A program made the position numbers and the translations under genes. Below the pieces are notes generated by a model. The model was not told where the DNA came from. It was given only the letters and a program-made list of their open reading frames with translations, and ran no database searches. From NCBI RefSeq assembly GCF_035084215.1, contig NC_090364.1, positions 4,464,001-4,528,000 of the forward strand: 64,000 nucleotides of DNA, in the 5' to 3' direction. Positions 1-46,959 of the stretch are shown piece after piece (the stretch's first letter is position 1; every line of letters starts with the position of its first letter). Source of the DNA: Heptranchias perlo. Its lineage: Eukaryota.

Positions 1-1065
1 GTACGCTCCTCGGGACCCGACCAGTTGCAGGTCCCTCAGAGCGTCCTTCCTCTCCTCGTACACCTGCCGCAGGGCCGGATCCTCGGCGGCCTGACCGAGA
101 CGGGACTCCAGGCCAAGCACCTCCTGCTCCAACCGCCTGACCTCGGACTCCCGCCTCTTAGTCGACCCCCTCGCGTACTCTTGACAGAAGAGGCGGACGT
201 GAGCCTTGCCCACGTCCCACCATAGCCTCAAGGAGGAGAAGCCTCCCCGCTTCCCTCTCCAGTCGCTCCAGAACAGACGGAACGAGTCCCGGAACCGCGC
301 GTCCTCCAGCAGCCGGTTGTTAAAGTGCCAGTACGCGGACCCCGACCGGGCGCGGAGCAGAGCGAGCTCCATCCACACCAGGTGGTGGTCCGAGCACGAC
401 ACCGGCCGGATGGAGGCCGACGGGACGCAGGAGGCGTACGCCCGCGAAACGTACAGGCGGTCGATTCTGGTGCTCCCCCCTCCGGCCCTCACAAAGGTGA
501 ACTGGCCGGAGTCGGGATGGAGATTCCGCCAGACGTCCACCAAGTCGAAGGACCCGACCAGGTCCCTCAACTTCTCCGTCGCCGTTCGGGCACGCGCGGG
601 ACCGGAGCGGTCCCTCGCCTCGAGGGTACGGTTAAAATCCCCCCCGAGGATAATGCACTCGCCGGCGTCGACGGAGTTTAGGTAAGTGGACACTTCTTCA
701 AAGAAGCTCACTTGCTCGCCCTCGGACCAGGGGGCGTACACGTTCACCAGGTGAAGCGGCACGTCCCCGTGGCGAAGGGCTACGTGGAGCAAGCGGCCCG
801 GCACCGGCTCCTTGACCCCCAAGATCTCCGGCTGAAAAGTCGGGGCCAACAAGATGGCCACCCCGCTCGAAACGCTGGCGAGGTGACTCAAGTAGACCCC
901 CCCTCCCCATTCCAGGATCCACGTGGCCTCGTCTCCCGGAACGGTGTGGGTTTCCTGCAGAAAGCACACCGCATACTTCCCGTCCCGCAGGACCGAGAAC
1001 TTGTCAAATCTACGGCGGGCGTCTCTGCCGCCGTTGATGTTGAGGCTGGCTATGGTTATCTCCAT
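1..1065 (-). CDS. Copy A ORF2 N-terminal part (APE endonuclease), truncated by the window edge
   Basis: ATG at 1065 (MEITIASLNING...); sequence matches ORF2 of copy B at offset 6858. Confidence 0.88.
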   Translation of the reverse strand, partial: MEITIASLNINGGRDARRRFDKFSVLRDGKYAVCFLQETHTVPGDEATWILEWGGGVYLSHLASVSSGVAILLAPTFQPEILGVKEPVPGRLLHVALRHGDVPLHLVNVYAPWSEGEQVSFFEEVSTYLNSVDAGECIILGGDFNRTLEARDRSGPARARTATEKLRDLVGSFDLVDVWRNLHPDSGQFTFVRAGGGSTRIDRLYVSRAYASCVPSASIRPVSCSDHHLVWMELALLRARSGSAYWHFNNRLLEDARFRDSFRLFWSDWRGKRGGFSSLRLWWDVGKAHVRLFCQEYARGSTKRRESEVRRLEQEVLGLESRLGQAAEDPALRQVYEERKDALRDLQLVGSRGAY

Positions 1066-1094
1066 GGCAAGAGCACAGCGCAACCTACTTAAAC

Positions 1095-3138
1095 CTAACG
1101 CGCGGAGGGAGCGGGGCCGCTCGTCGACCGCCACTCCCTCAAGAGCCCGGTGAGGAGGGATCTGAGCCGACGCAGCCCGACCCCGCCGTCGTCCCCTTCC
1201 GCGGCCACGGACGCGACGGCGGCCAGGACCGAGCGGATTAACTGCGCCGGCTCCGACCAACGGTCGAGGGCCAGCCGGACGCCATCGCGACGACGGCTCC
1301 AACCGGACGCAAAATCCCGGAGTTCCTCAACGGGGATGAGGGGAGACTCGGTGCCGGGCACGAGGGCGTCCACCACCTCACTGGCGGCAAACTCTAAATC
1401 CTCCCCAGTGCCCACCACCGAGTCCCCGTCCTCCTCCGGGTCATCGTCGCCCGCGGCCGACCCGCTCCCCGCACAAAGCGCGGAGAACGAGACGGCCGCG
1501 CCGGCCAGCCCCGCCTCCGCCACGATCCCACCCCCAGGATCGTCGGCAGAGGAGTCCTCCCCGGGCTCCACCGGGGGGTCCGAGTCAGACGGCGGCGCCG
1601 GGCGGGGACCCTCCCCAGCCTCCGAGCGGTGAAAAAACCGGCACCCGGATATAAGGGGAACCCGGGGAAACCGGGGAGAACGTGTACTCAAGTTCTCCCA
1701 CCTCCCCCGGCTCCGAGCCCAGAGACTGAGAGGAGGGGGTCTCCCCACCCACGTCGCCACCGACCGACCCGGCCGGTGAGATATTCTGGTTAAAACCCAC
1801 CACCAGGTCGAGCAGGTCCTGGGAGAGGTCGAGCCGGGGGCAGACGAATTTGGCCGCAACGGCCTCGCCCACCCCGGCACCCAGGACGCCCGACCCGGTG
1901 AACAGGGTGGTATCGGGTAAATGCGGATCCGCGACCCCCCCTATCGGCGGGGTCTCTCCATCCCCCCCGGGAGGCACGGGCACGATCTCCTCCCCCCGAG
2001 AGGTGGATGACCCCCGCCGCTGTTCGGATGTCACGGGCGGGGCCGCAGGATCCGCGACCGGCACCGACTCCCCTTCCACGGGGGGCCGTCCCTTAGCAGG
2101 GAGCCCGTTCGCTTCCGGGGAGTGGCGCCTCTTTTTCTTCCCGGGGGGTCGCGGAGGGAGGGGGAACTCCATGTCTGCTGGGACCCCCACCTCCGCTCCC
2201 TCCTGATCACCCGCCAGCCCGGGCTCTGTCGCGACCGCGAGATGTTGACTGGCCGCGGTCACGGCCTCGGGCTGACTCAGATCTTCTCTGTCCCGGGGAC
2301 CAGCCTCTAAATTCTTCCTCTTTCTCCGCGCCTTTCTCTGGCGAGGGTTCCCCTCCTCCCCCCTGGCGGAGGCCTCGACGCCAACCTCCACCCGCGCAGT
2401 TGACTGTCCCGACGCGGGGGCGGGGTTGGGGGGAGGAGCGGTGGCGGCGCCAGCCCCGGCCGCCGTAGCTGTTTTGGCGGCCTGAGAGGCAGGGCAGTTC
2501 CTCTTCAGGTGCCCCACCTCCTTACAGGCATGGCACCGCCCACCCTCTGCCGTCCAAAAGACGCGGTAAGGGATCCCCTCGTGGAGGGCGTTAAAGCCCC
2601 CCTCCGTAACCTCCTCCCGTGCCAGCTTGACGAATGCCTGGCGACGGAAGGAGTAAACATGCCGGAGGCTGTTCTCCCTGAGTCCGAGCGGCAGCGGCGT
2701 TACCCCCGACCTCACCTCCCCCAGTTGACGTAGGTGGGGGAGGAGGAGCTCGTCCGACAGGAAAGGCGGGACGTTGGATAAAATGACTCGCTGCGCGGTG
2801 GCCTCCAGCGGGTCCACCGGCAGGAAGGTCCCGCCAACCGTGAGCCCCTTACTAAGGGCCAGGGACACCGCCCGCTCGGACCTCAGGAAGAACACCGCCC
2901 TCCCGTACATTTTTGAGGCCGCGACGATGGCCGAGGGGCCGACAACCTCGGCCATGGCCTTTACGCAGGCCTCAATGGTCATGTTGGGGTGGGCGTAGCT
3001 CTTCACCCCATGCTTCCTCGTAATGAGGCGGAAAGGCGCCGGCCCAGCAGGAGCGGCACGAACTGTAGGAGCGGCCCCCGAGGTAACCGCCGCATACGTC
3101 CTGCTGGGTCCCGGCACCGGCGAAGATGGTGAAGCCAT
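1095..3138 (-). CDS. Copy A ORF1 (Tx1-type RNA-binding protein with zinc knuckle, ~680 aa), 1-nt frameshift near 1635
   Basis: MASPSSP start at 3138; CHACKEVGHLKRNC (CX2CX4HX4C); split over ORFs 1585..3162 and 1095..1880 by an A6 run where other copies have A5. Confidence 0.85.
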
Positions 3139-3844
3139 GACTGAGAGCCACACCCACCCCAAGTCTCAGGCCTTTGGATGGAAATTGGCCTTTTTTTTTA
3201 AAAGAATTCTTGAGGATACCTCTCTCCCCGAATCCCAGTGCTTGGTTGGGAGAGGGCCCCTTTGTTGTTTTTATATATTCCCAGAATACCCCGGAGAGCA
3301 AGGGAATATCCCAGAGAGCAGGAGAAGGTGGGAGGGATGGATGGCAGAATGGGAAGGAGGGAGTCTGCAGGGGTCGGCTGCTGCAGAAGTGGGTGGAAGA
3401 GGGGCGGGGTTGCACCTTAAAAGGTGGATCCTCTTCTGCCTGTCTTCCGGTGGGCAGGGGGAGGAGATGTCTTCCCCTAGACAGCTGGAGCTGCCTAGGC
3501 TCAGCCCTCCAAAGATTTGAAAAAGAAAGTAACTTCACCCAGGCAGCTCCAGCTGTCCCGGGCCAGACACTTGGGGGGGGACCCCTGTCCTCTGAAGTCT
3601 TCTTCCTCCCCCTACCTTCAGCCGACACACCTCACTGCACCGACCACCTCTTCCTCCCACTGGTTGGTGCTCTTTTTCTCCTTCTCCCTCCCTCCTTGTT
3701 GATGGTGGTTTCTCCTTCTTTCTCCTTCTCCTTCTCCTTCTCCCCAAGGGACCCAGGCAAGGGCCTGCTCTCTCTGCTCTCTCTGCTCTCCACTCCACTC
3801 AGTGGCAGTCCAGCCACAAACACCTCCAAGGCCTTGCTGGTCTG

Positions 3845-3920
3845 TATTGCAAAGCTCTGATTGGCTCTGGATATCAATCTCTCCCCCAGAGCCCTGTCCT
3901 TTGTTAATTGGTGCTTGGAT
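3845..3920 (+). repeat. 76-bp ferritin-promoter fragment between Tx1 copies A and B
   Basis: tattgcaaagctctgattggctctgg...ttgttaattggtgcttggat aligns with ferritin promoters (e.g. 49148-49227); same sequence as 10407-10482. Confidence 0.9.
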
Positions 3921-4016
3921 TTTTTTTCTTTTTTTTTATTAGGCCCCCCTTTTATAAGAAGGGGTGGTGTGGGGTGTGCTTAACAACTAAAAACCAAACA
4001 AACCAAAACCAAGAGT

Positions 4017-7000
4017 TCAAATCAAAATTTTATTATCCTCGTTCAGGATGCACTCCAGCCCCTGCGGTGCCCACCGGTCGCGGAAAGCCTCGAGTGTACC
4101 GGCAGACACCGCGTGCTCCATCTCCAGGGCCACCCGGGCGCGGAGCAACCCGCGAAAGAGAGGCAGACAGGCCGAGCGCCCACCCCCGCGGACCGCGAGC
4201 ATCCTGGACCTGTGGATAGCCACCTTGGACAGGCCCAGGAGCAGGCCCACGAGAACGTCCACCGACCTGCCCGCCCCCCTCCTCACCGGGCGGCCAAAGA
4301 TCAGGAGCGTGGGACTGAAATGCAGCCAGAACTTGAGGAGCAGCCCCTTCAAATAATGGAACAGGGGCTGCAGTCTCGCACACCCGGTGTACAGATGGAA
4401 CACGGACTCCTCCAGGCCGCAGAAATCGCAAGCGGCCTGGGTGTCCGTAAAATGGCGTAACCGCCGGTTGCACGCGACTGCTCCGTGCGCCACCCTCCAC
4501 CCCAGATCCCCAAAGTAACACGGGAGGACCCCTGTATAGAGAGCCTCCCAATGGGGACCCCCGTCTCCGCCGGACGGCAGGATGGTACGCCAGGGCGTGT
4601 CCGGGCGAGAGACGAGGGCGAGGAAGTGGATGGTGTGCAGGAGCAGCCCGTACAGGAAATCCCTCCGCGCGGTGTGAAACGGCACGGAGGGAATTTCCGA
4701 GAGACGACTCAAGTTGTGAGGCGCGGCCCCCCGAGGGAGGTTCCGGGGTTTGGCGCCGAGGAGGAACTCCGTCCGAACGGGGGTCAGGTCGGACGGGATG
4801 GCTCCGCACGCCTGAGCCGCCTCCACATCCCGAGTGGAGTCAGGGCCGAGCGCCGATTTCAACGCCCGGATGGCGATGGCCGCGTCCCCGGCACGCCACG
4901 AGGACATCCGTGCGGCGAGCGCCCACGGCTCCAACCAACCCGACCCACCGCCATCCAGGACGTCCCTGACTCTGGTCACCCGACCGGCCACGGCCCTCCG
5001 CACCGACAGCCGCGAGTGGCCGAAGCCGATATCGCGGAGGAACGGATTCCCGAGCAGCGGCTCCTGCAGGACGGCCGCTACCCCTGACGGGCGAGAGCTC
5101 CGACCGGAGGCGACCATGTTCCAGACCCTGAGCAGATCCTGGTAAAAGACAGGCAGCTCCTGCAAAGACGTGCGGCCGCCCACCAGCGAGATGAACAGGA
5201 GCTGCGTGTCGTAGTTCAGGCCGTGCAGCTGGCGGAAAAAATACGTCGCCAGCGCACGCCATCTAAGAGGACGCTCAACGTACAGGTATCGCCGCAGCGT
5301 CCGAAGGCGGAAAGTTGCCACCTGGGTGCGGACGCACACCAGCCCCTGACCGCCCTCCCTAAGCGGGAGACTCAGGACCGCGGCAGCGACCCAGTGTATC
5401 CCTCTGGCCCAGAAGAAGTCGACAAACTTCTTCTGAATCTTGGCGACAAACTCAGGGGGGGGGGGTCAAAGTGACCAACCGGTACCACAACATGGCGGCC
5501 ACCAGCTGGTTTATGACCAGCACACGACCCCTGTAGGATAACACTCGGAGCAGTCCTGTCCAGCGCGCCAGGCGAGCGGCGACCTTGGCCTCCAGCTCTT
5601 CCCAGTTCGCCGGCCAGGCTTCCTCGGCAGGGCCGAGGTAGACTCCCAGGTACCGGAGGTGCGTGGTACTCCAGGCGAAAGGCCTGAGCTCCTCCGGCAT
5701 GGAGTCCACCCGCCACTGACCCACCAGGAGTCCGGAACATTTCTCCCAGTTGATCCTTGCGGAAGACGCCGCAGAGTAGACCTCTTGGCACTCGCGCATC
5801 CTCCGCAAGTCAAGGGGATCCGTGACCACGAGGAGCACGTCGTCGGCGTAAGCCGAAAGGACGACCTCCACGTCCGGCTCGCGCAGAGCCAGTCCCGACA
5901 ACCTCTTGCGCAAGAGGCGCAGGAAAGGCTCCACGCAGACGGTGTATAATTGGCCGGACATGGGGCACCCCTGACGCACTCCTCTCCCGAAGCGAAGGGG
6001 CGCCGTCAAGGATCCGTTAACCTTAATCAGACACTCCGCGGCGGCGTACAGAAGTCGGATCCGGGCGACGAAATGCGACCCGAACCCGAAAGCGCGCAGA
6101 GTCCCGAATAGATACTCGTGATCCACCCTGTCGAACGCCTTCTCCTGATCTAAGGAAAGGAAGGCGACCGACAGACCAGCCCTCTGGGAATGGTGGATCA
6201 GGTCCCGGACGAGATGGATGTTATCGTGGATCTTCCGGCCCGGGACCGTGTAGGACTGGTCGGGGTGGATCATGTGGGCCAGCACGGTGCCCAGGCGAGC
6301 AGACATCGCCTTGGCAAAGACCTTATAATCCGTGCTGAGGAGGGAGACCGGGCGCCAGTTTTTAAGGTTGCGGAGATCCCCCTTCTTAGGCAGCAGGACC
6401 ACGACCGCCCTGCGCCACGAAAGGGGCATCTCCCCGGTCGCCAGACATTCCCCCAGGACCCGCGCGTAGTCGCCCCCCAGGACGTCCCAGAAGGCCCTGA
6501 GGAACTCCACGGTCAGCCCGTCCAGCCCCGGGGACTTGCCCCTGGAGAGCTGGTGGAGGGCGCCGGTCAGCTCCGCCAAACTGAGCGGAGCGTCCAGACG
6601 CTCGGCGTCCTCCGGGCCGACCTTCGGCAAGTCCTCCCACAAAACTCTGCGCGCCTCCTCGCTGGACGGATCCGGAGAGAACAGAGCCTCGTAGAAAGAT
6701 CGAGCCCGGGCCCTGACTCCCTCCGGGTCCGAGACGAGGGACCCGTCGTCGGCCAGCAGCGTAAGGAGCTGCTTACGAGCCCCCCGCCGCTTTTCCAGCG
6801 AGTAGAAGAAGGGAGAGCCGCGGTCCAGGTCCCGCAGGAGCTGGAGCCGCGACCTCACGTACGCTCCTCGGGACCCGACCAGTTGCAGGTCCCTCAGAGC
6901 GTCCTTCCTCTCCTCGTACACCTGCCGCAGGGCCGGATCCTCGGCGGCCTGACCGAGACGGGACTCCAGGCCAAGCACCTCCTGCTCCAACCGCCTGACC

Positions 7001-7923
7001 TCGGACTCCCGCCTCTTAGTCGACCCCCTCGCGTACTCTTGACAGAAGAGGCGGACGTGAGCCTTGCCCACGTCCCACCATAGCCTCAAGGAGGAGAAGC
7101 CTCCCCGCTTCCCTCTCCAGTCGCTCCAGAACAGACGGAACGAGTCCCGGAACCGCGCGTCCTCCAGCAGCCGGTTGTTAAAGTGCCAGTACGCGGACCC
7201 CGACCGGGCGCGGAGCAGAGCGAGCTCCATCCACACCAGGTGGTGGTCCGAGCACGACACCGGCCGGATGGAGGCCGACGGGACGCAGGAGGCGTACGCC
7301 CGCGAAACGTACAGGCGGTCGATTCTGGTGCTCCCTCCTGCAGCCCTCACAAAGGTGAACTGGCCGGAGTCGGGATGGAGATTCCGCCAGACGTCCACCA
7401 AGTCGAAGGACCCGACCAGGTCCCTCAACTTCTCCGTCGCCGTTCGGGCACGCGCGGGACCGGAGCGGTCCCTCGCCTCGAGGGTACGGTTAAAATCCCC
7501 CCCGAGGATAATGCACTCGCCGGCGTCGACGGAGTTTAGGTAAGTAGACACTTCTTCAAAGAAGCTCACTTGCTCGCCCTCGGACCAGGGGGCGTACACG
7601 TTCACCAGGTGAAGCGGCACGTCCCCGTGGCGAAGGGCTACGTGGAGCAAGCGGCCCGGCACCGGCTCCTTGACCCCCAAGATCTCCGGCTGAAAAGTCG
7701 GGGCCAACAAGATGGCCACCCCGCTCGAAACGCTGGCGAGGTGACTCAAGTAGACCCCCCCTCCCCATTCCAGGATCCACGTGGCCTCGTCTCCCGGAAC
7801 GGTGTGGGTTTCCTGCAGAAAGCACACCGCATACTTCCCGTCCCGCAGGACCGAGAACTTGTCAAATCTACGGCGGGCGTCTCTGCCGCCGTTGATGTTG
7901 AGGCTGGCTATGGTTATCTCCAT
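4017..7923 (-). CDS. Copy B ORF2 (APE + RT + C-terminal zinc finger), frameshift in G-run at ~5455-5465
   Basis: FLQETH, GGDFN, SDHH; LDQEKAFDRVDH, GVRQGCPMSG, YADD; CDFC..H..C. G11 here versus G10 in copies C and D. Confidence 0.9.
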
Positions 7924-7952
7924 GGCAAGAGCACAGCGCAACCTACTTAAAC

Positions 7953-9996
7953 CTAACGCGCGGAGGGAGCGGGGCCGCTAGTCGACCGCCACTCCCTCAA
8001 GAGCCCGGTGAGGAGGGATCTGAGCCGACGCAGCCCGACCCCGCCGCCGTCCCCTTCCGCGGCCACGGACGCGACGGCGGCCAGGACCGAGCGGATTAAC
8101 TGCGCCGGCTCCGACCAACGGTCGAGGGCCAGCCGGACGCCATCGCGACGACGGCTCCAACCGGACGCAAAATCCCGGAGTTCCTCAACGGGGATGAGGG
8201 GAGACTCGGTGCAGGGCACGAGGGCGTCCACCACCTCACTGGCGGCGAACTCTAAATCCTCCCCAGTGCCCACCACCGAGTCCCCGTCCTCCTCCGGATC
8301 ATCGTCGCCCGCGGCCGACCCGCTCCCCGCACAAAGCGCGGAGAACGAGACGGCCGCGCCGGCCGGCCCCGCCTCCGCCACGATCCCACCCCCAGGATCG
8401 TCGGCAGAGGAGTCCTCCCCGGGCTCCACCGGGGGGTCCGAGTCAGACGGCGGCGCCGGGCGGGGACCCTCCCCAGCCTCCGAGCGGTGAAAAACCGGCA
8501 CCCGGATATAAGGGGAACCCGGGGAAACCGGGGAGAACGTGTACTCAAGTTCTCCCACCTCCCCCGGCTCCGAGCCCAGAGACTGAGAGGAGGGGGTCTC
8601 CCCACCCACGTCGCCACCGACCGACCCGGCCGGTGAGATATTTTGATTAAAACCCACCACCAGGTCGAGCAGGTCCTGGGAGAGTTCGAGCCGGGGGCAG
8701 ACGAATTTGGCCGCAACGGCCTCGCCCACCCCGACACCCAGGACGCCCGACCCGGTGAACATGGTAGTGTCGGGTAAATGCGGAGCCGCGACCCCCCCTA
8801 TCGGCGGGGTCTCTCCATCCCCCCCCGGGAGGCACGGGCACTATCTCCTCCCCCCGAGAGGTGGATGACCCCCGCCGCTGTTCGGATGTCACGGGCGGGG
8901 CCGCAGGATCCGCGACCGGCACCGACTCCCCTTCCACGGGGGGCCGTCCCTTAGCAGGGAGCCCGTTCGCTTCCGGGGAGTGGTGCCTCTTTTTCTTCCA
9001 GGAGGGTCGCGGAGGGAGGGGGGACTCCATGTCTGCTGGGACCCCCGCCTCCGCTCCCTCCTGATCACCCGCCAGCCCGGGCTCTGTCGCGACCGCGAGA
9101 TGTTGACTGGCCGCGGTCACGGCCTCGGGCTGACTGAGATCTTCTCTGTCCCGGGGACCAGCCTCTAGATTCTTCCTCTTTCTCCGCGCCTTTCTCTGGC
9201 GAGGGTTCCCCTCCTCCCCCCTGGCGGAGGCCTCGACGCCAACCTCCACCCGCGCAGTTGACTCTCCCGACGCGGGGGCGGGGTTGGGGGGAGGAGCGGT
9301 GGCGGCGCCAGCCCCGGCCGCCGAAGCTGTTTTGGCGGCCTGAGAGGCAGGGCAGTTCCTCTTCAGGTGCCCCACCTCCTTACAGGCATGGCACCGCCCA
9401 CCCTCTGCCGTCCAAAAGACGCGGTAAGGGGTCCCCTCGTGGAGGGCGTTAAAGCCCCCCTCCGTAACCTCCTCCCGTGCCAGCTTGACGAATGCCTGGC
9501 GACGGAAGGAGTAAACATGCCGGAGGCTGTTCTCCCTGAGTCCGAGCGGCAGCGGCGTTACCCCCGACCTCACCTCCCCCAGTTGACGTAGGTGGGGGAG
9601 GAGGAGCTCGTCCGACAGGAAAGGCGGGACGTTGGATAAAATGACTCGCTGCGCGGTGGCCTCCAGCGGGTCCACCGGCAGGAAGGTCCCGCCAACCGTG
9701 AGCCCCTTACTAAGGGCCAGGGACACCGCCCGCTCGGACCTCAGGAAGAACACCGCCCTCCCGTACATTTTCGAGGCCGCGACGATGGCCGAGGGGCCGA
9801 CAACCTCGGCCATGGCCTTAACGCAGGCCTCAATGGTCATGTTGGGGTGGGCGTAGCTCTTCACCCCATGCTTCCTCGTAATGAGGCGGAAAGGCGCCGG
9901 CCCAGCAGGAGCGGCACGAACTGTAGGAGCGGCCCCCGAGGTAACCGCCGCATACGTCCTGCTGGGTCCCGGCACCGGCGAAGATGGTGAAGCCAT
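7953..9996 (-). CDS. Copy B ORF1, frameshift in C-run near 8820
   Basis: ORFs 8647..9996 and 7953..8762 together match ORF1 of copy A. Confidence 0.85.
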
Positions 9997-10406
9997 GACC
10001 TAAAGAGCCACACCCACCCCAAGTCTCAGGCCTTTGGATTGAAATTGGCCTCTTTTTTTTAAATGAAAACCTTGAGGAAAACCTCTCTCCCCGAATCCCA
10101 GTGCTTGGATGGGAGAGGGGCCCCTTTGTTGGTTTTTAAATTCCCCAAGAACACCCCGGAGAGCAAGGGAATATCCCAGAGAGCAGGAGAAGGTGGGAGG
10201 GATGGATGGCGGAATGGGAAGGACCGACCACCTCTTCCTCCCACTGGTTGGTGCTCTTTTTCTCCTTCTCCCTCCCTCCTTGTTGATGGTGGTTTCTCCT
10301 TCTCCCCAAGGGACCCAGGCAAGGGCCTGCTCTCTCTGCTCTCTCTGCTCTCCACTCCACTCAGTGGCAGTCCAGCCACAAACACCTCCAAGGCCTTGCT
10401 GGTCTG

Positions 10407-10482
10407 TATTGCAAAGCTCTGATTGGCTCTGGATATCAATCTCTCCCCCAGAGCCCTGTCCTTTGTTAATTGGTGCTTGGAT
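10407..10482 (+). repeat. 76-bp ferritin-promoter fragment between Tx1 copies B and C
   Basis: Same sequence as 3845-3920; ends GGAT followed by poly(T). Confidence 0.9.
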
Positions 10483-10578
10483 TTTTTTTCTTTTTTTTTA
10501 TTAGGCCCCCCTTTTATAAGAAGGGGTGGTGTGGGGTGTGCTTAACAACTAAAAACCAAACAAACCAAAACCAAGAGT

Positions 10579-13500: not shown

Positions 13501-14467
13501 GACGGGACTCCAGGCCAAGCACCTCCTGCTCCAACCGCCTGACCTCGGACTCCCGCCTCTTAGTCGACCCCCTCGCGTACTCTTGACAGAAGAGGCGGAC
13601 GTGAGCCTTGCCCACGTCCCACCATAGCCTCAAGGAGGAGAAGCCTCCCCGCTTCCCTCTCCAGTCGCTCCAGAACAGACGGAACGAGTCCCGGAACCGC
13701 GCGTCCTCCAGCAGCCGGTTGTTAAAGTGCCAGTACGCGGACCCCGACCGGGCGCGGAGCAGAGCGAGCTCCATCCACACCAGGTGGTGGTCCGAGCACG
13801 ACACCGGTCGGATGGAGGCCGACGGGACGCAGGAGGCGTACGCCCGCGAAACGTACAGGCGGTCGATTCTGGAGCTCCCTCCTCCGGCCCTCACAAAGGT
13901 GAACTGGCCGGAGTCGGGATGGAGATTCCGCCAGACGTCCACCAAGTCGAAGGACCCGACCAGGTCCCTCAACTTCTCCGTCGCCGTTCGGGCACGCGCG
14001 GGACCGGAGCGGTCCCTCGCCTCGAGGGTACGGTTAAAATCCCCCCCGAGGATAATGCACTCGCCGGCGTCGACGGAGTTTAGGTAAGTGGACACTTCTT
14101 CAAAGAAGCTCACTTGCTGGGCTCCGGACCAGGGGGCGTACACGTTCACCAGGTGAAGCGGCACGTCCCCGCGGCGAAGGGCCACGTGGAGCAAGCGGCC
14201 CGGCACCGGCTCCTTGACCCCCAAGATCTCCGGCTGAAAAGTCGGGGCCAACAAGATGGCCACCCCGCTCGAAACGCTGGCGAGGTGACTCAAGTAGACC
14301 CCCCCTCCCCATTCCAGGATCCACGTGGCCTCGTCTCCCGGAACGGTGTGGGTTTCCTGCAGAAAGCACACCGCATACTTCCCGTCCCGCAGGACCGAGA
14401 ACTTGTCAAATCTACGGCGGGCGTCTCTGCCGCCGTTGATGTTGAGGCTGGCTATGGTTATCTCCAT
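10579..14467 (-). CDS. Copy C ORF2; 9-nt deletion in RT (~12462) and a frameshifting deletion near 11137
   Basis: ORF 10595..14485 runs out of frame after PDTPWR; the zinc-finger end is in ORF 10579..11142. Confidence 0.88.
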
Positions 14468-14496
14468 GACAAGAGCACAGCGCAACCTACTTAAAC

Positions 14497-16526
14497 CTAA
14501 CGCGCGGAGGGAGCGGGGCCGCTAGTCGACCGCCACTCCCTCAAGAGCCCGGTGAGGAGGGATCTGAGCCGATGCAGCCCGACCCCGCCGCCGTCCCCTT
14601 CCGCGGCCACGGACGCGACGGCGGCCAGGACCGAGCGGATTAACTGCGCCGGCTCCGACCAACGGTCGAGGGCCAGCCGGACGCCATCGCGACGACTGCT
14701 CCAACCGGACGCAAAATCCCGGAGTTCCTCAACGGGGATGAGGGGAGACTCGGTGTCGGGCACGAGGGCGTCCACCACCTCACTGGTGGCGAACTCCAAA
14801 TCCTCCCCAGTGCCCACCACCGAGTCCCCGTCCTCCTCCGGGTCATCGTCGCCCGCGGCCGACCCGCTCCCCGCACAAAGCGCGGAGAACGAGACGGCCG
14901 CGCCAGCCGGCCCCGCCTCCGCCACGATCCCACCCCCAGGATCGTCGGCAGAGGAGTCCTCCCCGGGCTCTACTGGGGGCTCCGGGTCAGAGGGCGGCGC
15001 CGGGCGGGGACCCTCCCCAGCCTCCGAGCGGTGAAAAACCGGCACCCGGATATAGGGGGAAACCGGGGAGAACGTGTACTCAAGTTCTCCCACCTCCCCC
15101 GGCTCCGAGCCCAGAGACTGAGAGGAGGGGGTCTCCCCACCCACGTCGCCAGCGACCGACCCGGCCGGTGAGATATTTTGGTTAAAACCCACCACCAGGT
15201 CAAGCAGGTCCTGGGAGAGGTCGAGCCGGGGGCAGACGAATTTGGCCGCAACGGCCTCGCCCACCCCGGCACCCAGGACGCCCGACCCGGTGAACAGGGT
15301 AGTGTCGGGTAACTGCGGAGCCGCGACCCCCCCTATCGGCAGGGTCTCTCCATCCCCCCCGGGAGGCACGGGCACGATCTCCTCCCCCCCGAGAGGTAGA
15401 TGACCCCCGCCGCTGTTCGGATGTCACGGGCGGGGCCGCAGGATCCGCGACCGTCACCGACTCCCCTTCCACGGGGGGCCGTCCCTTAGCAGGGAGCCCG
15501 TTCGCTTCCGGGGAGTGGCGCCTCTTTTTCTTCCCGGGGGGTCGCGGAGGGAGGGGGAACTCCATGTCTGCTGGGACCCCCGCCTCCGCTCCCTCCTGAT
15601 CACCCGCCAGCCCGGGCTCTGTCGCGACCGCGAGATGTTGACTGGCCGCGGTCACGGCCTCGGGCTGACTGAGATCTTCTCTGTCCCGGGGACCAGCCTC
15701 TAAGTTCTTCCTCTTTCTCCGCGCCTTTCTCTGGCGAGGGTTCCCCTCCTCCCCCCTGGCGGAGACCTCGACGCCAACCTCCACCCGCGCAGTTGACTCT
15801 CCCGACGCAGGGGCGGGGTTGGGGGGAGGAGCGGTGGCGGCGCCAGCCCCGGCCGCCGTAGCTGTATTGGCGGCCTGAGAGGCAGGGCAGTTCCTCTTCA
15901 GGTGCCCCACCTCCTTACAGGCATGGCACCGCCCACCCTCTGCCGTCCAAAAGACGCGGTAAGGGGTCCCCTCGTGGAGGGCGTTAAAGCCCCCCTCCGT
16001 AACCTCCTCCCGTGCCAGCTTGACTAATGCCTGGCGACGGAAGGAGTAAACATGCCGGAGGCTGTTCTCCCTGAGTCCGAGCGGCAGCGGCGTTACCCCC
16101 GACCTCACCTCCCCCAGTTGACGTAGGTGGGGGAGGAGGAGCTCGTCCGACAGGAAAGGCGGGACGTTGGATAAAATGACCCGCTGCGCGGTGGCCTCCA
16201 GCGGGTCCACCGGCAGGAAGGTCCCGCCCACCGTGAGCCCCTTACTAAGGGCCAGGGACACCGCTCGCTCGGACCTCAGGAAGAACACCGCCCTCCCGTA
16301 CATTTTTGAGGCCGCGACGATGGCCGAGGGGCCGACAACCTCGGCCATGGCCTTAACGCAGGCCTCAATGGTCATGTTGGGGTGGGCGTAGCTCTTCACC
16401 CCATGCTTCCTCGTAATGAGGCGGAAAGGCGCCGGCCCAGCAGGAGCGGCACGAACTAGGAGCGGCCCCCGAGGTAACCGCCGCATACGTCCTGGGTCCC
16501 GGCACCGGCGAAGATGGTGACGCCAT
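14497..16526 (-). CDS. Copy C ORF1, frameshifted near the N-terminus and at ~15385
   Basis: ORFs 15200..16552 and 14497..15375; small indels relative to copies A/B. Confidence 0.82.
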
Positions 16527-17223
16527 GACTCAAGGAGCCACACCCACCCCAAGTCTCAGGCCTTCTGAAGGATATTGGCCTTTTTTTTTAAAGTCAACCT
16601 TGAGGAAAACCTCTCTCCCCGAATCCCAGTGCTTGGTTGGGAGAGGGCCCCTTTTTTTGGTTTTCAAATTTTCCCCAAGAACACCCCGGAGAGAAAGGGA
16701 ATATCCTGGAGAGCAAGAGAAGGAGGGAGCGATGGATGGCAGAATGGGAAGGAGGGAGTCTGCAGGGGTCGGCTGCTGCAGAAGTGGGTGGAAGAGGGGC
16801 GGGGTTGCACCTTAAAAGGTGGATCTTCTTCTGCCTGTCTTCCGGTGGGCAGGGGGAGGAGATGTCTTCCCCAAGACAGCTGGAGCTGCCGAGGCTCAGT
16901 CCTCCAAAGATTTGAAGAAGTAAGTAACTTCACCCAGGCAGCTCCAGCTGTCCTGGGCCGGACACTTGGGGGGGAGCCCCCTGTCCTCTGAAGTCTTCTT
17001 CCTCCCCCTACCTTCAGCCGACGCACCTCACTGCACCGACCACCTCTTCCTCCCTCTGTTGGTGCTCTTTACTTCTCCCTCCCTCCTTGTTGATGGTGGT
17101 TTCTCCTCCTTCTCCTCCTTCTCCCCAAGGGACCCAGGCAAGGACCTGCTCTCTGCTCTCTCTGCTCTCCACTCCACTCAGTGGCAGTCCAGCCACAAAC
17201 ACCTCCAAGGCCTTGCTGGTCTG

Positions 17224-17383
17224 AACAAAGAGTCACTTTCAGATTGGTGGGAAGTCAAAGAGCCCAAAAGCAGTGACATCACTGAGACTGATCATCCAAA
17301 CCGGACTGTATTCCAAACCACTGATTGGCTCTGGGTATCAATCCCGCCCCCATAACCCGTCCTTTGTTAATTGGTGCCTGGAT
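17224..17383 (+). repeat. 160-bp ferritin-promoter fragment between Tx1 copies C and D
   Basis: Direct repeat of 24151-24310 (promoter of ferritin 1); ends GGAT followed by poly(T). Confidence 0.92.
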
Positions 17384-17488
17384 TTTTTTTTTTTTTTTTT
17401 CTCTTCTCTAATTAGGCCCCCCTTTTATAAGAAGGGGGGTGTGGGGTGTGCTTAACAACTAAAAACCAAACAAACCAAAACCAAGAGT

Positions 17489-20400
17489 TCAAATCAAAAT
17501 TTTATTATCCTCGTTCAGGATGCACTCCAGCCCCTGCGGTGCCCACCGGTCGCGGAAAGCCTCAAGCGTACCGGCAGACACCGCGTGCTCCATCTCCAGG
17601 GCCACCCGGGCGCGGAGCAACCCGCGAAAGAGAGGCAGACAGGCCGAGCGCCCACCCCCGCGGACCGCGAGCATCCTGGACCTGTGGATAGCCACCTTGG
17701 ACAGGCCCAGGAGCAGGCCCACGAGGACGCCCACCGACCTGCCCGCCCCCCTCCTCACCGGGCGGCCAAAGATCAGGAGCGTGGGACTGAAGTGCAGCCA
17801 GAACTTGAGGAGCAGCCCCTCCAAATAATGGAACAGGGGCTGCAGTCTCGCACACCCAGTGTACAAATGAAAAACGGACTCCTCCAGGCCGCAGAAAATG
17901 CAAGCGGCCTGGGTGTCCGTAAAATGGCGTAAACGCCTGTTGCACGGGACTGCTCCGTGCAACACCCTCCACCCCAGATCCCCAAAGTAACACGGGAGGA
18001 CCCCTGTATAGAGAGCCTCCCACTGGGGACCCCCGTCTCCGCCGGACGGCAGGATGGTACGCCAGGGCGTGTCCGGGCGAGAGACGAGGGCGAGGAAGTG
18101 GATGGTGTGCAGGAGCAGCCCGTACAGGAAATCCCTCCGCGCGGTGTGAAACAGCACGGAGGGAATTTCCGAGAGACGGCTCAAGTTGTGAGGCGCGGCC
18201 CTCCGAGGGAGGTTCCGGGGTTTGGCGCCGAGGAGGAATTCCGTCCGAACGGGGGTCAGGTCGGACGGGATGGCTCCGCACGCCTGAGCCGCCTCCACAC
18301 CCCGAGTGGAGTCAGGGCCGAGCGCCGATTTCAACGCCTGGATGGCGGCGGCCGCGTCCCCGGCACGCCACGAGGACATGCGAGCGGCGAGCGCCCACGG
18401 CTCGAGCCAACCCGACCCTCCGCCATCCAGGACGTCCCTGACTCTGGTCACCCGACCGGCCACAGCCCTCCGCTCCGTCAGCCACGAGCGGCTGAAGCCG
18501 ACATCGCGGAGGAACGGATTCCCGAGCAGCGGCTCCTGCAGGACGGCCGCTACCCCCGACGGGCGAGAGCTCCGGCTGGAGGCGACCATGGTCCAGACCC
18601 TGAGCAGATCCTGGTACAAGACAGGCAGCTCCTGCAAAGACGTGCGGCCGCCCACCAGCGAGACGAACAGGAGCTGCGTGTCGTAGTTCAGGCCGTGCAG
18701 CTGGCGGAAAAAATACGTCGCCAGCGCACGCCATCTAAGAGGACGCTCAACGTACAGGTATCGCTGCAGCATCCGAAGGCGGAAAGTTGCCACCTGGGTG
18801 CGGACGCACACCAGCCCCTGACCGCCCTCCCTAAGCGGGAGACTCAGGACCGCGGCAGCGACCCAGTGCATCCCTTTGGCCCAGAAGAAGTCGACGAACT
18901 TCCTCTGAATCTTGGCGACAAAATCAGGGGGGGGGGTCAAAGGAACCAACCGGTACCACAACATGGCGGCCACCAGCTGGTTTATGACCAGCACTCGACC
19001 CCTGTAGGATAACACTCGGAGCAGTCCTGTCCAGCGCGCCAGGCGAGCGGTGACTTTGGCCTCCAGCTCTACCCAGTTCGCCGGCCAGGCTTCCTCGGCA
19101 GGGCCGAGGTAGACTCCCAGGTACCGGAGGTGCGTGGTGCTCCAGGCGAAAGCCCTGAGCTCCTCCGGCATGGAGTCCACCCGCCACTGACCCACCAGGA
19201 GTCCGGAACATTTCTCCCAGTTGATTCTTGCGGAGGACGCGGCAGAGTAGACCTCTTGGCACTCGCGCATTCTCCGCAAGTCAAGGGGATCGGTGACCAT
19301 GAGGAGCACGTCGTCGGCGTAAGCCGAAAGGACGACCTCCACGCCCGGCTCGAGCAGAGCCAGTCCCGACAGCCTCTTTCGCAAGAGGTGCAGGAAAGGC
19401 TCTACGCAGATGGTATATAATTGGCCGGACATGGGGCACCCCTGACGCACTCCTCTCCCGAAGCGAAGGGGCGCCGTCAAGGATCCGTTAACCTTAATCA
19501 GACACTCCGCGGCGGCGTACAGAAGTCGGATCCGGGCGACGAAATGCGACCCGAATCCGAAAGCGCGCAGAGTCCCGAATAGATACTCGTGATCCACCCT
19601 GTCGAACGCCTTCTCCTGATCCAAGGAAAGGAAGGCGACCGACAGACCAGCCCTCTGGGAATGGTGGATCAGGTCCCGGACCAGGTGGATGTTATCGTGG
19701 ATCGTCCGGCCCGGGACCGTGTAGGACTGGTCGGGGTGGATCATGTGGTCCAGCACGGTGCCGAGGCGAGCAGACATCGCCCTGGCGAAGACCTTATAAT
19801 CCGTGCTGAGGAGGGAGACCGGGCGCCAGTTTTTAAGGTTGCGGAGATCCCCCTTCTTAGGCAGCAGGACCACGACCGCCCTGCGCCACGAAAGGGGCAT
19901 CTCCCCGGTCGCCAGACATTCCCCCAGGACCCGCGCGTAGTCGCCCCCCAGGACGTCCCAGAAGGCCCTGAGGAACTCCACGGTCAGCCCGTCCAGCCCC
20001 GGGGATTTGCCCCTAGAGAGCTGGTGGAGGGCGCCGGTCAGCTCCGCCAAACTGAGCGGAGCGTCCAGACGCTCGGCGTCCTCCGGGCCGACCTTCGGCA
20101 AGTCCTCCCACAAAACTCTGCGCGCCTCCTCGCTGGACGGATCCGGAGAGAACAGAGCCTCGTAGTAAGATCGAGCACGGGCCCTGACTCCCTCCGGGTC
20201 CGAGACGAGGGACCCGTCGTCGGCCAGCAGCGTAAGGAGCTGCTTACGAGCCCCCCGCCGCTTTTCCAGCGAGTAGAAGAAGGGAGAGCCGCGGTCCAGG
20301 TCCCGCAGGAGCTGGAGCCGCGACCTCACGTACGCTCCTCGGGACCCGACCAGTTGCAGGTCCCTCAGAGCGTCCTTCCTCTCCTCGTACACCTGCCGCA

Positions 20401-21394
20401 GGGCCGGATCCTCGGCGGCCTGACCGAGACGGGACTCCAGGCCAAGCACCTCCTGCTCCAACCGCCTGACCTCGGACTCCCGCCTCTTAGTCGACCCCCT
20501 CGCGTACTCTTGACAGAAGAGGCGGACGTGAGCCTTGCCCACGTCCCACCATAGCCTCAAGGAGGAGAAGCCTCCCCGCTTCCCTCTCCAGTCGCTCCAG
20601 AACAGACGGAACGAGTCCCGGAACCGCGCGTCCTCCAGCAGCCGGTTGTTAAAGTGCCAGTACGCGGACCCCGACCGGGCGCGGAGCAGAGCGAGCTCCA
20701 TCCACACCAGGTGGTGGTCCGAGCACGACACCGGTCGGATGGAGGCCGACGGGACGCAGGAGGCGTACGCCCGCGAAACGTACAGGCGGTCGATTCTGGA
20801 GCTCCCTCCTCCGGCCCTCACAAAGGTGAACTGGCCGGAGTCGGGATGGAGATTCCGCCAGACGTCCACCAAGTCGAAGGACCCGACCAGGTCCCTCAAC
20901 TTCTCCGTCGCCGTTCGGGCACGCGCGGGACCGGAGCGGTCCCTCGCCTCGAGGGTACGGTTAAAATCCCCCCCGAGGATAATGCACTCGCCGGCGTCGA
21001 CGGAGTTTAGGTAAGTGGACACTTCTTCAAAGAAGCTCACTTGCTGGGCTCCGGACCAGGGGGCGTACACGTTCACCAGGTGAAGCGGCACGTCCCCGCG
21101 GCGAAGGGCCACGTGGAGCAAGCGGCCCGGCACCGGCTCCTTGACCCCCAAGATCTCCGGCTGAAAAGTCGGGGCCAACAAGATGGCCACCCCGCTCGAA
21201 ACGCTGGCGAGGTGACTCAAGTAGACCCCCCCTCCCCATTCCAGGATCCACGTGGCCTCGTCTCCCGGAACGGTGTGGGTTTCCTGCAGAAAGCACACCG
21301 CATACTTCCCGTCCCGCAGGACCGAGAACTTGTCAAATCTACGGCGGGCGTCTCTGCCGCCGTTGATGTTGAGGCTGGCTATGGTTATCTCCAT
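17489..21394 (-). CDS. Copy D ORF2: intact APE endonuclease / reverse transcriptase / zinc finger polyprotein (~1300 aa)
   Basis: ORF 17489..21412 uninterrupted; first ATG at 21394; catalytic motifs FLQETH, GDFN, SDH, YADD and CIFC..H..C present. Confidence 0.95.
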   Translation of the reverse strand: MEITIASLNINGGRDARRRFDKFSVLRDGKYAVCFLQETHTVPGDEATWILEWGGGVYLSHLASVSSGVAILLAPTFQPEILGVKEPVPGRLLHVALRRGDVPLHLVNVYAPWSGAQQVSFFEEVSTYLNSVDAGECIILGGDFNRTLEARDRSGPARARTATEKLRDLVGSFDLVDVWRNLHPDSGQFTFVRAGGGSSRIDRLYVSRAYASCVPSASIRPVSCSDHHLVWMELALLRARSGSAYWHFNNRLLEDARFRDSFRLFWSDWRGKRGGFSSLRLWWDVGKAHVRLFCQEYARGSTKRRESEVRRLEQEVLGLESRLGQAAEDPALRQVYEERKDALRDLQLVGSRGAYVRSRLQLLRDLDRGSPFFYSLEKRRGARKQLLTLLADDGSLVSDPEGVRARARSYYEALFSPDPSSEEARRVLWEDLPKVGPEDAERLDAPLSLAELTGALHQLSRGKSPGLDGLTVEFLRAFWDVLGGDYARVLGECLATGEMPLSWRRAVVVLLPKKGDLRNLKNWRPVSLLSTDYKVFARAMSARLGTVLDHMIHPDQSYTVPGRTIHDNIHLVRDLIHHSQRAGLSVAFLSLDQEKAFDRVDHEYLFGTLRAFGFGSHFVARIRLLYAAAECLIKVNGSLTAPLRFGRGVRQGCPMSGQLYTICVEPFLHLLRKRLSGLALLEPGVEVVLSAYADDVLLMVTDPLDLRRMRECQEVYSAASSARINWEKCSGLLVGQWRVDSMPEELRAFAWSTTHLRYLGVYLGPAEEAWPANWVELEAKVTARLARWTGLLRVLSYRGRVLVINQLVAAMLWYRLVPLTPPPDFVAKIQRKFVDFFWAKGMHWVAAAVLSLPLREGGQGLVCVRTQVATFRLRMLQRYLYVERPLRWRALATYFFRQLHGLNYDTQLLFVSLVGGRTSLQELPVLYQDLLRVWTMVASSRSSRPSGVAAVLQEPLLGNPFLRDVGFSRSWLTERRAVAGRVTRVRDVLDGGGSGWLEPWALAARMSSWRAGDAAAAIQALKSALGPDSTRGVEAAQACGAIPSDLTPVRTEFLLGAKPRNLPRRAAPHNLSRLSEIPSVLFHTARRDFLYGLLLHTIHFLALVSRPDTPWRTILPSGGDGGPQWEALYTGVLPCYFGDLGWRVLHGAVPCNRRLRHFTDTQAACIFCGLEESVFHLYTGCARLQPLFHYLEGLLLKFWLHFSPTLLIFGRPVRRGAGRSVGVLVGLLLGLSKVAIHRSRMLAVRGGGRSACLPLFRGLLRARVALEMEHAVSAGTLEAFRDRWAPQGLECILNEDNKILI

Positions 21395-21423
21395 GACAAG
21401 AGCACAGCGCAACCTACTTAAAC

Positions 21424-23453
21424 CTAACGCGCGGAGGGAGCGGGGCCGCTAGTCGACCGCCACTCCCTCAAGAGCCCGGTGAGGAGGGATCTGAGCCGAT
21501 GCAGCCCGACCCCGCCGCCGTCCCCTTCCGCGGCCACGGACGCGACGGCGGCCAGGACCGAGCAGATTAACTGCGCCGGCTCCGACCAACGGTCGAGGGC
21601 CAGCCGGACGCCATCGCGACGACGGCTCCAACCGGACGCAAAATCCCGGAGTTCCTCAACGGGGATGAGGGGAGACTCGGTGTCGGGCACGAGGGCGTCC
21701 ACCACCTCACTGGTGGCGAACTCCAAATCCTCCCCAGTGCCCACCACCGAGTCCCCGTCCTCCTCCGGGTCATCGTCGCCCGCGGCCGACCCGCTCCCCG
21801 CACAAAGCGCGGAGAACGAGACGGCCGCGCCAGCCGGCCCCGCCTCCGCCACGATCCCACCCCCAGGATCGTCGGCAGAGGAGTCCTCCCCGGGCTCTAC
21901 TGGGGGCTCCGGGTCAGAGGGCGGCGCCGGGCGGGGACCCTCCCCAGCCTCCGAGCGGTGAAAAACCGGCACCCGGATATAGGGGGAAACCGGGGAGAAC
22001 GTGTACTCAAGTTCTCCCACCTCCCCCGGCTCCGAGCCCAGAGACTGAGAGGAGGGGGTCCCCCCACCCACGTCGCCAGCGACCGACCCGGCCGGTGAGA
22101 TATTTTGGTTAAAACCCACCACCAGGTCAAGCAGGTCCTGGGAGAGGTCGAGCCGGGGGCAGACGAATTTGGCCGCAACGGCCTCGCCCACCCCGGCACC
22201 CAGGACGCCCGACCCGGTGAACAGGGTAGTGTCGGGTAACTGCGGAGCCGCGACCCCCCCTATCGGCAGGGTCTCTCCATCCCCCCCGGGAGGCACGGGC
22301 ACGATCTCCTCCCCCCCGAGAGGTAGATGACCCCCGCCGCTGTTCGGATGTCACGGGCGGGGCCGCAGGATCCGCGACCGTCACCGACTCCCCTTCCACG
22401 GGGGGCCGTCCCTTAGCAGGGAGCCCGTTCGCTTCCGGGGAGTGGCGCCTCTTTTTCTTCCCGGGGGGTCGCGGAGGGAGGGGGAACTCCATGTCTGCTG
22501 GGACCCCCGCCTCCGCTCCCTCCTGATCACCCGCCAGCCCGGGCTCTGTCGCGACCGCGAGATGTTGACTGGCCGCGGTCACGGCCTCGGGCTGACTGAG
22601 ATCTTCTCTGTCCCGGGGACCAGCCTCTAAGTTCTTCCTCTTTCTCCGCGCCTTTCTCTGGCGAGGGTTCCCCTCCTCCCCCCTGGCGGAGACCTCGACG
22701 CCAACCTCCACCCGCGCAGTTGACTCTCCCGACGCAGGGGCGGGGTTGGGGGGAGGAGCGGTGGCGGCGCCAGCCCCGGCCGCCGTAGCTGTATTGGCGG
22801 CCTGAGAGGCAGGGCAGTTCCTCTTCAGGTGCCCCACCTCCTTACAGGCATGGCACCGCCCACCCTCTGCCGTCCAAAAGACGCGGTAAGGGGTCCCCTC
22901 GTGGAGGGCGTTAAAGCCCCCCTCCGTAACCTCCTCCCGTGCCAGCTTGACTAATGCCTGGCGACGGAAGGAGTAAACATGCCGGAGGCTGTTCTCCCTG
23001 AGTCCGAGCGGCAGCGGCGTTACCCCCGACCTCACCTCCCCCAGTTGACGTAGGTGGGGGAGGAGGAGCTCGTCCGACAGGAAAGGCGGGACGTTGGATA
23101 AAATGACCCGCTGCGCGGTGGCCTCCAGCGGGTCCACCGGCAGGAAGGTCCCGCCCACCGTGAGCCCCTTACTAAGGGCCAGGGACACCGCTCGCTCGGA
23201 CCTCAGGAAGAACACCGCCCTCCCGTACATTTTTGAGGCCGCGACGATGGCCGAGGGGCCGACAACCTCGGCCATGGCCTTAACGCAGGCCTCAATGGTC
23301 ATGTTGGGGTGGGCGTAGCTCTTCACCCCATGCTTCCTCGTAATGAGGCGGAAAGGCGCCGGCCCAGCAGGAGCGGCACGAACTAGGAGCGGCCCCCGAG
23401 GTAACCGCCGCATACGTCCTGGGTCCCGGCACCGGCGAAGATGGTGACGCCAT
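21424..23453 (-). CDS. Copy D ORF1, frameshifted as in copy C
   Basis: ORFs 22127..23479 and 21424..22302. Confidence 0.82.
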
Positions 23454-24150
23454 GACTCAAGGAGCCACACCCACCCCAAGTCTCAGGCCTTCTGAAGGAT
23501 ATTGGCCTTTTTTTTTAAAGTCAACCTTGAGGAAAACCTCTCTCCCCGAATCCCAGTGCTTGGTTGGGAGAGGGCCCCTTTTTTTGGTTTTCAAATTTTC
23601 CCCAAGAACACCCCGGAGAGAAAGGGAATATCCTGGAGAGCAAGAGAAGGAGGGAGCGATGGATGGCAGAATGGGAAGGAGGGAGTCTGCAGGGGTCGGC
23701 TGCTGCAGAAGTGGGTGGAAGAGGGGCGGGGTTGCACCTTAAAAGGTGGATCTTCTTCTGCCTGTCTTCCGGTGGGCAGGGGGAGGAGATGTCTTCCCCA
23801 AGACAGCTGGAGCTGCCGAGGCTCAGTCCTCCAAAGATTTGAAGAAGTAAGTAACTTCACCCAGGCAGCTCCAGCTGTCCTGGGCCGGACACTTGGGGGG
23901 GAGCCCCCTGTCCTCTGAAGTCTTCTTCCTCCCCCTACCTTCAGCCGACGCACCTCACTGCACCGACCACCTCTTCCTCCCTCTGTTGGTGCTCTTTACT
24001 TCTCCCTCCCTCCTTGTTGATGGTGGTTTCTCCTCCTTCTCCTCCTTCTCCCCAAGGGACCCAGGCAAGGACCTGCTCTCTGCTCTCTCTGCTCTCCACT
24101 CCACTCAGTGGCAGTCCAGCCACAAACACCTCCAAGGCCTTGCTGGTCTG

Positions 24151-24480
24151 AACAAAGAGTCACTTTCAGATTGGTGGGAAGTCAAAGAGCCCAAAAGCAG
24201 TGACATCACTGAGACTGATCATCCAAACCGGACTGTATTCCAAACCACTGATTGGCTCTGGGTATCAATCCCGCCCCCATAACCCGTCCTTTGTTAATTG
24301 GTGCCTGGATTCATGGAAGATTCCCGAGTGGCTATCGGGGATTGTCAATCATCATTGGTGATGTCATTCCAAGGTTGAATGCCGGCTGTCCCAGTGGTAT
24401 AAATACAAGAGCTTGTGCAGAAAGTGGATAGTTCTATAATTTTCCGGGTAATAGTATTCATATATTAAAAAAAAGTGAAG
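24151..24480 (+). promoter_or_regulatory. Ferritin promoter module (gene 1; repeated before genes 2, 3, 4, 6, 7, 8)
   Basis: TGACATCA 24201-24208, CTGATTGGCT (inverted CCAAT/Y-box) 24248-24257, further ATTGG boxes, TGATGTCA 24359-24366, TATAAATA 24398; equivalent TATA at 30084, 35235, 40011, 49314, 54328, 59554. Confidence 0.8.

Positions 24481-27062
<2,582 letters not shown>

Positions 27063-45941: not shown

Positions 45942-46959
<1,018 letters not shown>

Follow-up and report, generated by a model that had tools for sequence, protein, structure and literature searches.

A Tx1-clade retrotransposon dispersed through the Heptranchias perlo genome prefers gene starts in the amplified ferritin and ZP3 families

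We identified a long interspersed nuclear element (LINE) of the Tx1 clade in Heptranchias perlo that has inserted throughout the genome and has a strong regional bias toward the start regions of two amplified genes, ferritin and ZP3. The stretch of DNA analysed here, called the window, comprises 64,000 nucleotides (C43:4464001-4528000 of the 3.25 Gb genome) and lies inside a ferritin array, of which 464 kb was fetched. The genome directly displays dispersal of the family, clustering of copies with intact 5' ends, several nick positions, long duplications and transductions. On balance we consider it probable, though far from certain, that a Tx1 LINE with a relaxed endonuclease inserts genome-wide with a strong preference for the promoters and first exons of amplified, strongly transcribed genes.

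Domain content and sequence comparison support the classification of the element as a young, autonomous Tx1-clade LINE. Open reading frame 2 (ORF2) of copy D in the window carries the Pfam domains Exo_endo_phos (residues 24-245) and RVT_1 (530-780), and the element ORF2 is 50% identical to that of Xenopus laevis Tx1L (YTX2_XENLA) over 1299 residues, or 54% over the first 800 residues. Its bit score is 970 against Tx1L (800 amino acids), compared with 284 against human L1 ORF2p and about 80 against R2, so that the Tx1 identity proposed in an earlier note on this DNA (the original prediction) was borne out. The most identical named protein came from a stingray (71% over half of the query). ORF1 includes a CCHC knuckle that lies slightly below the Pfam cut-off (zf-CCHC, E=0.0012). 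In addition to two ORFs, the element has a poly(A) tail, 5' truncation in its dispersed copies and short duplications of 7-15 bp. Both ORFs are long and open in four of the ten long copies of the ferritin array. The endonuclease is 97-100% identical across nine complete ferritin-array copies, 98% identical between copy D and a copy in a ZP3 promoter, and 93-95% identical in three copies at a duplicon described below.

The host genes form unusually large families. A 28-mer from ferritin exon 1 has 145 exact matches in the genome, mostly on C43 and C38 among the matches listed, and this very large expansion of about 145 copies occupies C43:4.27-4.78 Mb and C38:9.6-17.7 Mb. Within the fetched 464 kb there are 73 exon-1 matches, and of the 72 genes that could be tested 59 keep an intact ferritin frame. 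A second amplified gene, ZP3-like with a ZP-N domain (128 exact matches), is interleaved with ferritin blocks on C38:9.1-17.7 Mb. ZP3 is an oocyte gene whose product belongs to the egg coat. The third locus, the duplicon, is found on ten contigs, near the contig end in several of them, and consists of a CpG-rich stretch and an adjoining long tandem repeat; it shares 150 bp with ZP3 intron 2 in reversed orientation. Far fewer ferritin copies, namely 14, are given for a snailfish in the portion of PMC10746142 used here, and no literature was found on shark ferritin arrays or oocyte ferritin.

Copies with intact 5' ends are concentrated at these loci. Three motifs from the 5' end gave 38, 24 and 38 matches, of which 98 of 100 fell on C38 (9.3-17.7 Mb), the C43 array, C725, C1048, C1109 or the duplicon, some of them being transduced pieces; the two outlying matches are one transduced piece and one full-length copy, on C30. 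A candidate for a second outside full-length copy, at C3:60.185 Mb, was rejected as a transduced piece. Almost all 5' ends fetched from the first motif set (29/30) run on into ferritin promoter sequence, and 62 of the 100 matches belong to two types whose fetched members have such ferritin pieces, or heads. The 464 kb ferritin array contains 17 exact 3' ends compared with 50 in the 514 Mb of C1-C3, an enrichment of about 375-fold with duplicates included. In this array the end of an element block falls no more than 1 kb from a ferritin ATG in 42 of 44 cases, the zone in question covering about 20% of the DNA, with the reservation that many blocks are duplicates of paralogs and thus dependent.

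Young antisense insertions in the ferritin promoter use nick positions at -226, -88, -54, about -28, +34 and +43 from the TATA box, with varied tails and 3' untranslated region (UTR) variants. These six positions have no common sequence and spread over about 270 bp; a single conserved nick site of the Keno or Tx1L type was not seen among them, and further sites occur in ZP3 and dispersed DNA. The -226 motif has 36 matches (10 off the cluster contigs) and the +43 motif 21 (3 off these contigs), and some of the -226 and -88 junction matches are transduced pieces. Truncated copies lacking a promoter head use ferritin promoter sites as well (L018; C43:4690689). In young full-length ferritin copies the 5' end faces the gene at a distance varying over the 270 bp, and sense insertions also exist. 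At ZP3, copies are antisense in promoters and sense in exon 2-3 DNA. The several nick positions, tails and 3'UTR variants uphold the earlier proposal of recurrent independent insertion into ferritin promoters. Older relatives (72-80% identity) occupy the same promoter zone in both orientations, which indicates that the preference is long-standing. The preference itself is an observation; its cause we infer below.

Outside the clusters the family is widespread. A 26-mer from the 3'UTR has 482 exact matches in the genome, and those listed run along C1-C9. The first 30 of these 3' ends, all on C1 and C2, were examined, and every one lies in non-ferritin DNA. The search of the 3'UTR with tabulation of flanks that had been suggested was thus run within this genome, and it contradicts ferritin-specific targeting, since most copies sit at sites unrelated to ferritin. 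By extrapolation from the C1-C3 density (50 per 514 Mb), dispersed copies make up about 315 of the 482 3' ends. None of the 30 examined copies is full-length: 25 end within 1.5 kb, and the other five have no 5' end at full-length distance, nor did any of seven long dispersed copies inspected for one. Most dispersed copies have duplications of 7-15 bp, and for the 21 copies whose duplication matches over 9 bases or more the nick is preceded by C in 13 and followed by T in 19, the latter being partly forced by the procedure for placing the nick. The junction motif in the original prediction (the -88 site) has 22 exact matches, with at least three different 3' end variants, which is fewer than for the -226 site; the three matches outside the cluster contigs are all transduced pieces. 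Taken together, the ferritin junction motifs (22+21+36=79, of which 63 are on cluster contigs) correspond to 13-16% of the 482 3' ends, a figure from separate exact patterns that leaves other sites uncounted. For comparison, part of PMC4494074 sets target specificity at more than 20% of flanks of one type.

Some insertions share a site, or nearly so. Two of the 30 copies (L142 and L143) lie at nearly the same position of one repeat resembling a long terminal repeat (LTR), 50-70 bp past a TATA-like box, and a third (L124) lies in a similar repeat. Three further insertions (L019, L024 and L133) share one position within an AT-rich satellite of 207 bp.

Evidence for the origin of the dispersed copies came from 3' transductions, which were found in 13 of the 30 as pieces of 18-164 bp beside the tail, derived from the ferritin promoter in three cases, ZP3 in three, and head type B or the duplicon in seven; none was found among 30 in either of two control windows. 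These transductions from cluster loci identify cluster copies as the transcribed parents of dispersed copies. The source elements are confined to the ferritin, ZP3 and duplicon loci, and the transductions provide a ready map of them. A perfect palindrome with 11 bp arms within the type B 5' end (window 63086-63115; also L062) is often transduced.

Neighbouring copies in arrays are separated by duplicated pieces of 76-224 bp, and the core promoter facing the gene stays complete; at ferritin, each array end seen keeps at least 164 bp upstream of TATA unbroken. Head types F1 and F2 share one 5' junction in 23 of 30 fetched ends, with the next nick 76, 136, 198 or 207 bp further on, and the duplicon spacer is 224 bp. 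Outside the clusters, the full-length C30 copy has a 205 bp duplication and nine ferritin promoter bases at its 5' end. Neither a pure long duplication nor a purely carried head fits all spacers, given the true duplication at C30 and the fixed junctions with variable nicks. Since the 5' junctions are fixed while the nicks vary, homology appears to be needed. One copy at a -226-type site has a 20 bp duplication, and the start of the F2 head lies 21 bp ahead of that site, which suggests that heads arose as founder junctions and were propagated afterwards. At L018, two copies of 188 bp stop at exactly the base where an older fragment upstream of them ends, and at L003 the middle copy changes to the sequence of its left neighbour near the 5' end; both are what pairing of the end of the complementary DNA (cDNA) with a resident copy would give. 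The same pattern fits the D/C and A/Z pairs of the window, in which copies A to D follow one another and copy Z lies to their left.

The relaxed-endonuclease reading can be set out as a series of steps. The enzyme would nick 5' of a T and usually leave a duplication of 7-15 bp, with preferred targets at about 145 ferritin and about 128 ZP3 copies and at the chromosome-end duplicon. First, germ-line chromatin or a bound protein at gene starts, rather than a DNA motif, would set the site. Second, after reverse transcription the cDNA end would pair with homologous DNA upstream of the nick, its partner being either a copy already resident there or promoter bases that travelled on the RNA; the DNA from anchor to nick would be duplicated (76-224 bp), the 5' junction fixed, tandem arrays formed and the core promoter left unbroken. 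Third, copies with their 5' end against a promoter would be transcribed, probably by a putative divergent promoter activity, and would seed dispersed copies. Unequal recombination between copies would later shuffle the arrays.

A number of points weigh against this scheme. At dispersed sites neither CpG nor GC is enriched and CCAAT is only weakly in excess (n=21, uncorrected p=0.025 in one of three tests), which leaves a general promoter preference unsupported. Pairing with a resident copy does not explain the A/B and B/C pairs or further array pairs whose 5' types differ; for A/B and B/C, unequal recombination is needed. Many cluster copies are segmental duplicates, and a long duplication outside the clusters is known from one case (C30). 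At the duplicon, the listing of ORFs and comparisons gave only LINE remnants and the tandem repeat, with no gene among them. Promoter borrowing by the element and germ-line expression of these ferritins are putative, the latter resting on ZP3 being an oocyte gene and on the shared cluster. Insertions may also harm ferritin genes, since occupied ones are more often broken: three of six occupied ferritins are broken compared with 10 of 66 others. In a separate comparison, an RNA gene at the duplicon or the C30 site was rejected, as Rfam gave two matches far below cut-off in the CT-rich 5'UTR and none at the targets.

A bolder reading, which we regard as possible but doubtful, is that the LINE homes actively to RNA polymerase II (Pol II) starts of amplified oocyte genes (ferritin and ZP3), where it would exploit the divergent transcription of these genes and restore the host promoter through a duplication about the size of a nucleosome (205-224 bp at three unrelated targets), its copies seeding the recombination that interleaves both families. 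If true, active homing would be the protein-coding counterpart of the ribosomal DNA (rDNA) and transfer RNA (tRNA) niches.

Alternatively, active targeting may be absent altogether, with copies that by chance land next to germ-line promoters becoming sources that duplication, gene conversion and unequal crossing-over then multiply. Most copies are indeed dispersed, copies A, B and C have one tail, copies are mosaic, three array blocks have a common left context, duplicon copies are near-identical between chromosomes, and the junctions from ZP3 through the element to ferritin point to ectopic recombination. Duplication, however, cannot make new nick positions, and about 300 bp of ferritin promoter holds six antisense positions and one sense position together with the older insertions in both orientations. 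As 145 x 300 bp amounts to 1.3e-5 of the genome, 482 random insertions would give about 0.006 promoter hits. We therefore judge this explanation unlikely.

We give equally little credence to self-reinforcing homing, in which RNA with host flank at both ends (from read-through and from promoter-started transcription) pairs with nicked paralogs and steers copies back to their gene family of origin, as proposed for R2. Read-through is common (13/30), the C30 copy begins with its nine promoter bases, and at L043/L120 the head of one paralog type precedes the promoter of another. Pairing by the 3' flank, however, would recreate the donor junction only and not new ones downstream; moreover, the transduced pieces seen are re-polyadenylated and lie at unrelated sites, and truncated copies without heads also reach the promoter. 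Very improbable is the single-site specificity of the original prediction, in which the endonuclease would read a single sequence in the ferritin promoter. The base concerned does account for 22 exact junctions, and these include at least three different 3' end variants, but we rejected this specificity given at least six nick positions without shared sequence, the same enzyme at ZP3, 30/30 sampled copies elsewhere and a dispersed nick consensus of only C|T.

Our favoured reading, relaxed nicking with a regional preference, can be compared with known systems as far as the portions of the cited papers used here describe them. Tx1L inserts into the DNA transposon Tx1D (PMC4494074). The present family resembles Tx1L in its 50% identical ORF2, two ORFs, apurinic endonuclease-like (APE) endonuclease, reverse transcriptase (RT) and poly(A) tail, but has no single target sequence and favours protein-coding gene starts. 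For crocodilian Tx1-Mar and SINEU and for Keno, Kibi and Koshi, target preference can be partial (13-90% for SINEU families), and likenesses include tandem insertions around a duplication, flank-derived 5' extensions and proposed transcription from the flanking target; in that portion of the source their targets are transposons, small nuclear RNA (snRNA) and 5S genes, satellites and microsatellites, with no protein-coding promoter among them, and the duplication is 16 bp (PMC4494074). The Dictyostelium element TRE5-A, also a non-LTR element of the APE type, is likewise positioned in the region upstream of a multicopy gene and turns its 5' end toward that of the gene, but it uses RNA polymerase III genes, a narrow window about 50 bp upstream and a contact between ORF1p and TFIIIB (PMC3159450). 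In contrast, the present family is found at Pol II genes with a 270 bp spread and many off-target copies. Joining of the 5' end by strand invasion with carried target (27 nt in R2Bm) and a 126 bp duplication (R9) have parallels here, although R2 and R9 have restriction-like endonucleases and one exact site (PMC6895275). APE elements make duplications of 10-20 bp (PMC6895275), compared with 76-224 bp in the present family.

No Tx1 family at ferritin, ZP3 or protein-coding promoters was found in the literature by title and start of abstract, a search that lay outside Repbase, Dfam and subscription journals, so the family may be catalogued already. We likewise found no description of its target behaviour, namely relaxed nicking, regional preference, long homology-linked duplications and sources confined to those loci. 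Known target-preferring LINEs use RNA genes, microsatellites and other transposons, and a close Tx1L relative favouring multicopy protein-coding starts would widen this rule. It would also provide, in a vertebrate, a means of studying how APE-type elements select their sites when no strict motif guides them and by what mechanism the 5' end is joined; its long duplications and chimeric neighbours record the joining step.

Within the window, the array opens with the 5' part of copy A (1-3844, minus strand; 5'UTR, ORF1 with the CCHC knuckle and the ORF2 start), which begins left of the window and is preceded by copy Z. A 76 bp ferritin promoter piece of head type F1 (3845-3920, plus strand; -164 to -88 from TATA) separates it from copy B (3921-10406, minus strand), which has frameshifted ORFs and an internal deletion in its 5'UTR. 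An identical 76 bp piece (10407-10482, plus strand) leads to copy C (10483-17223, minus strand), with ORF2 open over 1308 codons from stop to stop, ORF1 frameshifted and the same 5' half as D. Beyond a 160 bp promoter piece of head type F2 (17224-17383, plus strand; -247 to -87, identical to 24151-24310) lies copy D (17384-24150, minus strand), whose ORF1 is frameshifted and whose ORF2 (17489-21394, 1301 amino acids) encodes the APE endonuclease, RT and zf-RVT. The unbroken core promoter and 5'UTR with CCAAT boxes and TATA at 24398 (24151-24480, plus strand) then face the ferritin gene behind the array (24481-27013, plus strand), which has four exons by its splice joints and a premature stop at codon 76.

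At 3920, 10482 and 17383 the promoter motif stops and poly(T) follows, and the uninterrupted version of the motif ends at 24310, 88 bp from the TATA box; the predicted junctions and their distance of about 90 bp are therefore correct. At least two promoter paralogs and two insertions had been proposed. The A/B and B/C spacers (76 bp) do differ from the C/D spacer (160 bp, matching the right flank of D), but the three junctions represent at most two events, because A, B and C share one identical tail; that of D is different. In their 5' halves C and D diverge at 0-5 positions per 500; Z and A are likewise almost identical there, and the 3' ends differ, making the copies mosaic. A false assembly duplication of C and D is unlikely, as the first 2.5 kb of their 3' halves contain 9-22 mismatched bases per 500.

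The claim that insertions are always antisense to ferritin holds for copies A-D (minus strand) and for young full-length ferritin copies, but not for four older sense 3' fragments in the window, at 29526, 39213, 48516 and 53770 (73-79% identity), or for one young sense copy at the start of another ferritin paralog. The old fragment at 29526-29748 (plus strand) lies 418 bp before an ATG and resembles 53770-53992, and that at 39213-39524 (plus strand) lies 567 bp before an ATG and resembles 48516-48827. An internally deleted copy (60786-63036, minus strand) sits in exon 2 of the ferritin gene at 59641 and carries a transduced piece of another ferritin promoter. Next comes the 3' end of a copy (63202-64000, minus strand) that is full-length, has two open ORFs and faces another ferritin promoter with its 5' end, which lies beyond the window. 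As predicted, all these traces are tied to ferritin promoters or exons, ending within 600 bp of a ferritin ATG or starting in exon 2.

Rearrangements of the host arrays were also seen. Two arrays on C38 (L207 at 11.846 Mb and L209 at 13.847 Mb) run from ZP3 exon 2 to a ferritin promoter, and are rearrangement junctions of element copies. At three further C38 loci examined for left array ends (L208, L215 and L237), the sequence consisted of ZP3 exons and contained no such junction. At C43:4630687-4631000, near an array strand switch, a sense related element in ferritin intron 1 is followed by 173 bp of a ZP3 5' end. Contigs of four runs from two other samples include spliced ferritin as well as sequences that resemble the element along most of its length, with strand, start and tissue unreadable. 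Contigs of the ferritin type at window 24277-27200 occur in runs X2 and X5; their depth in X2 is more than 1000x that in X1 and X3, which are runs from the same sample; this, depth being a poor measure, is a hint of tissue-restricted ferritin expression. In addition, a ferritin copy at window 45779-45950 has neither promoter nor exon 1, and upstream of it, at 43600-45020, lies a fragment of an unrelated LINE.

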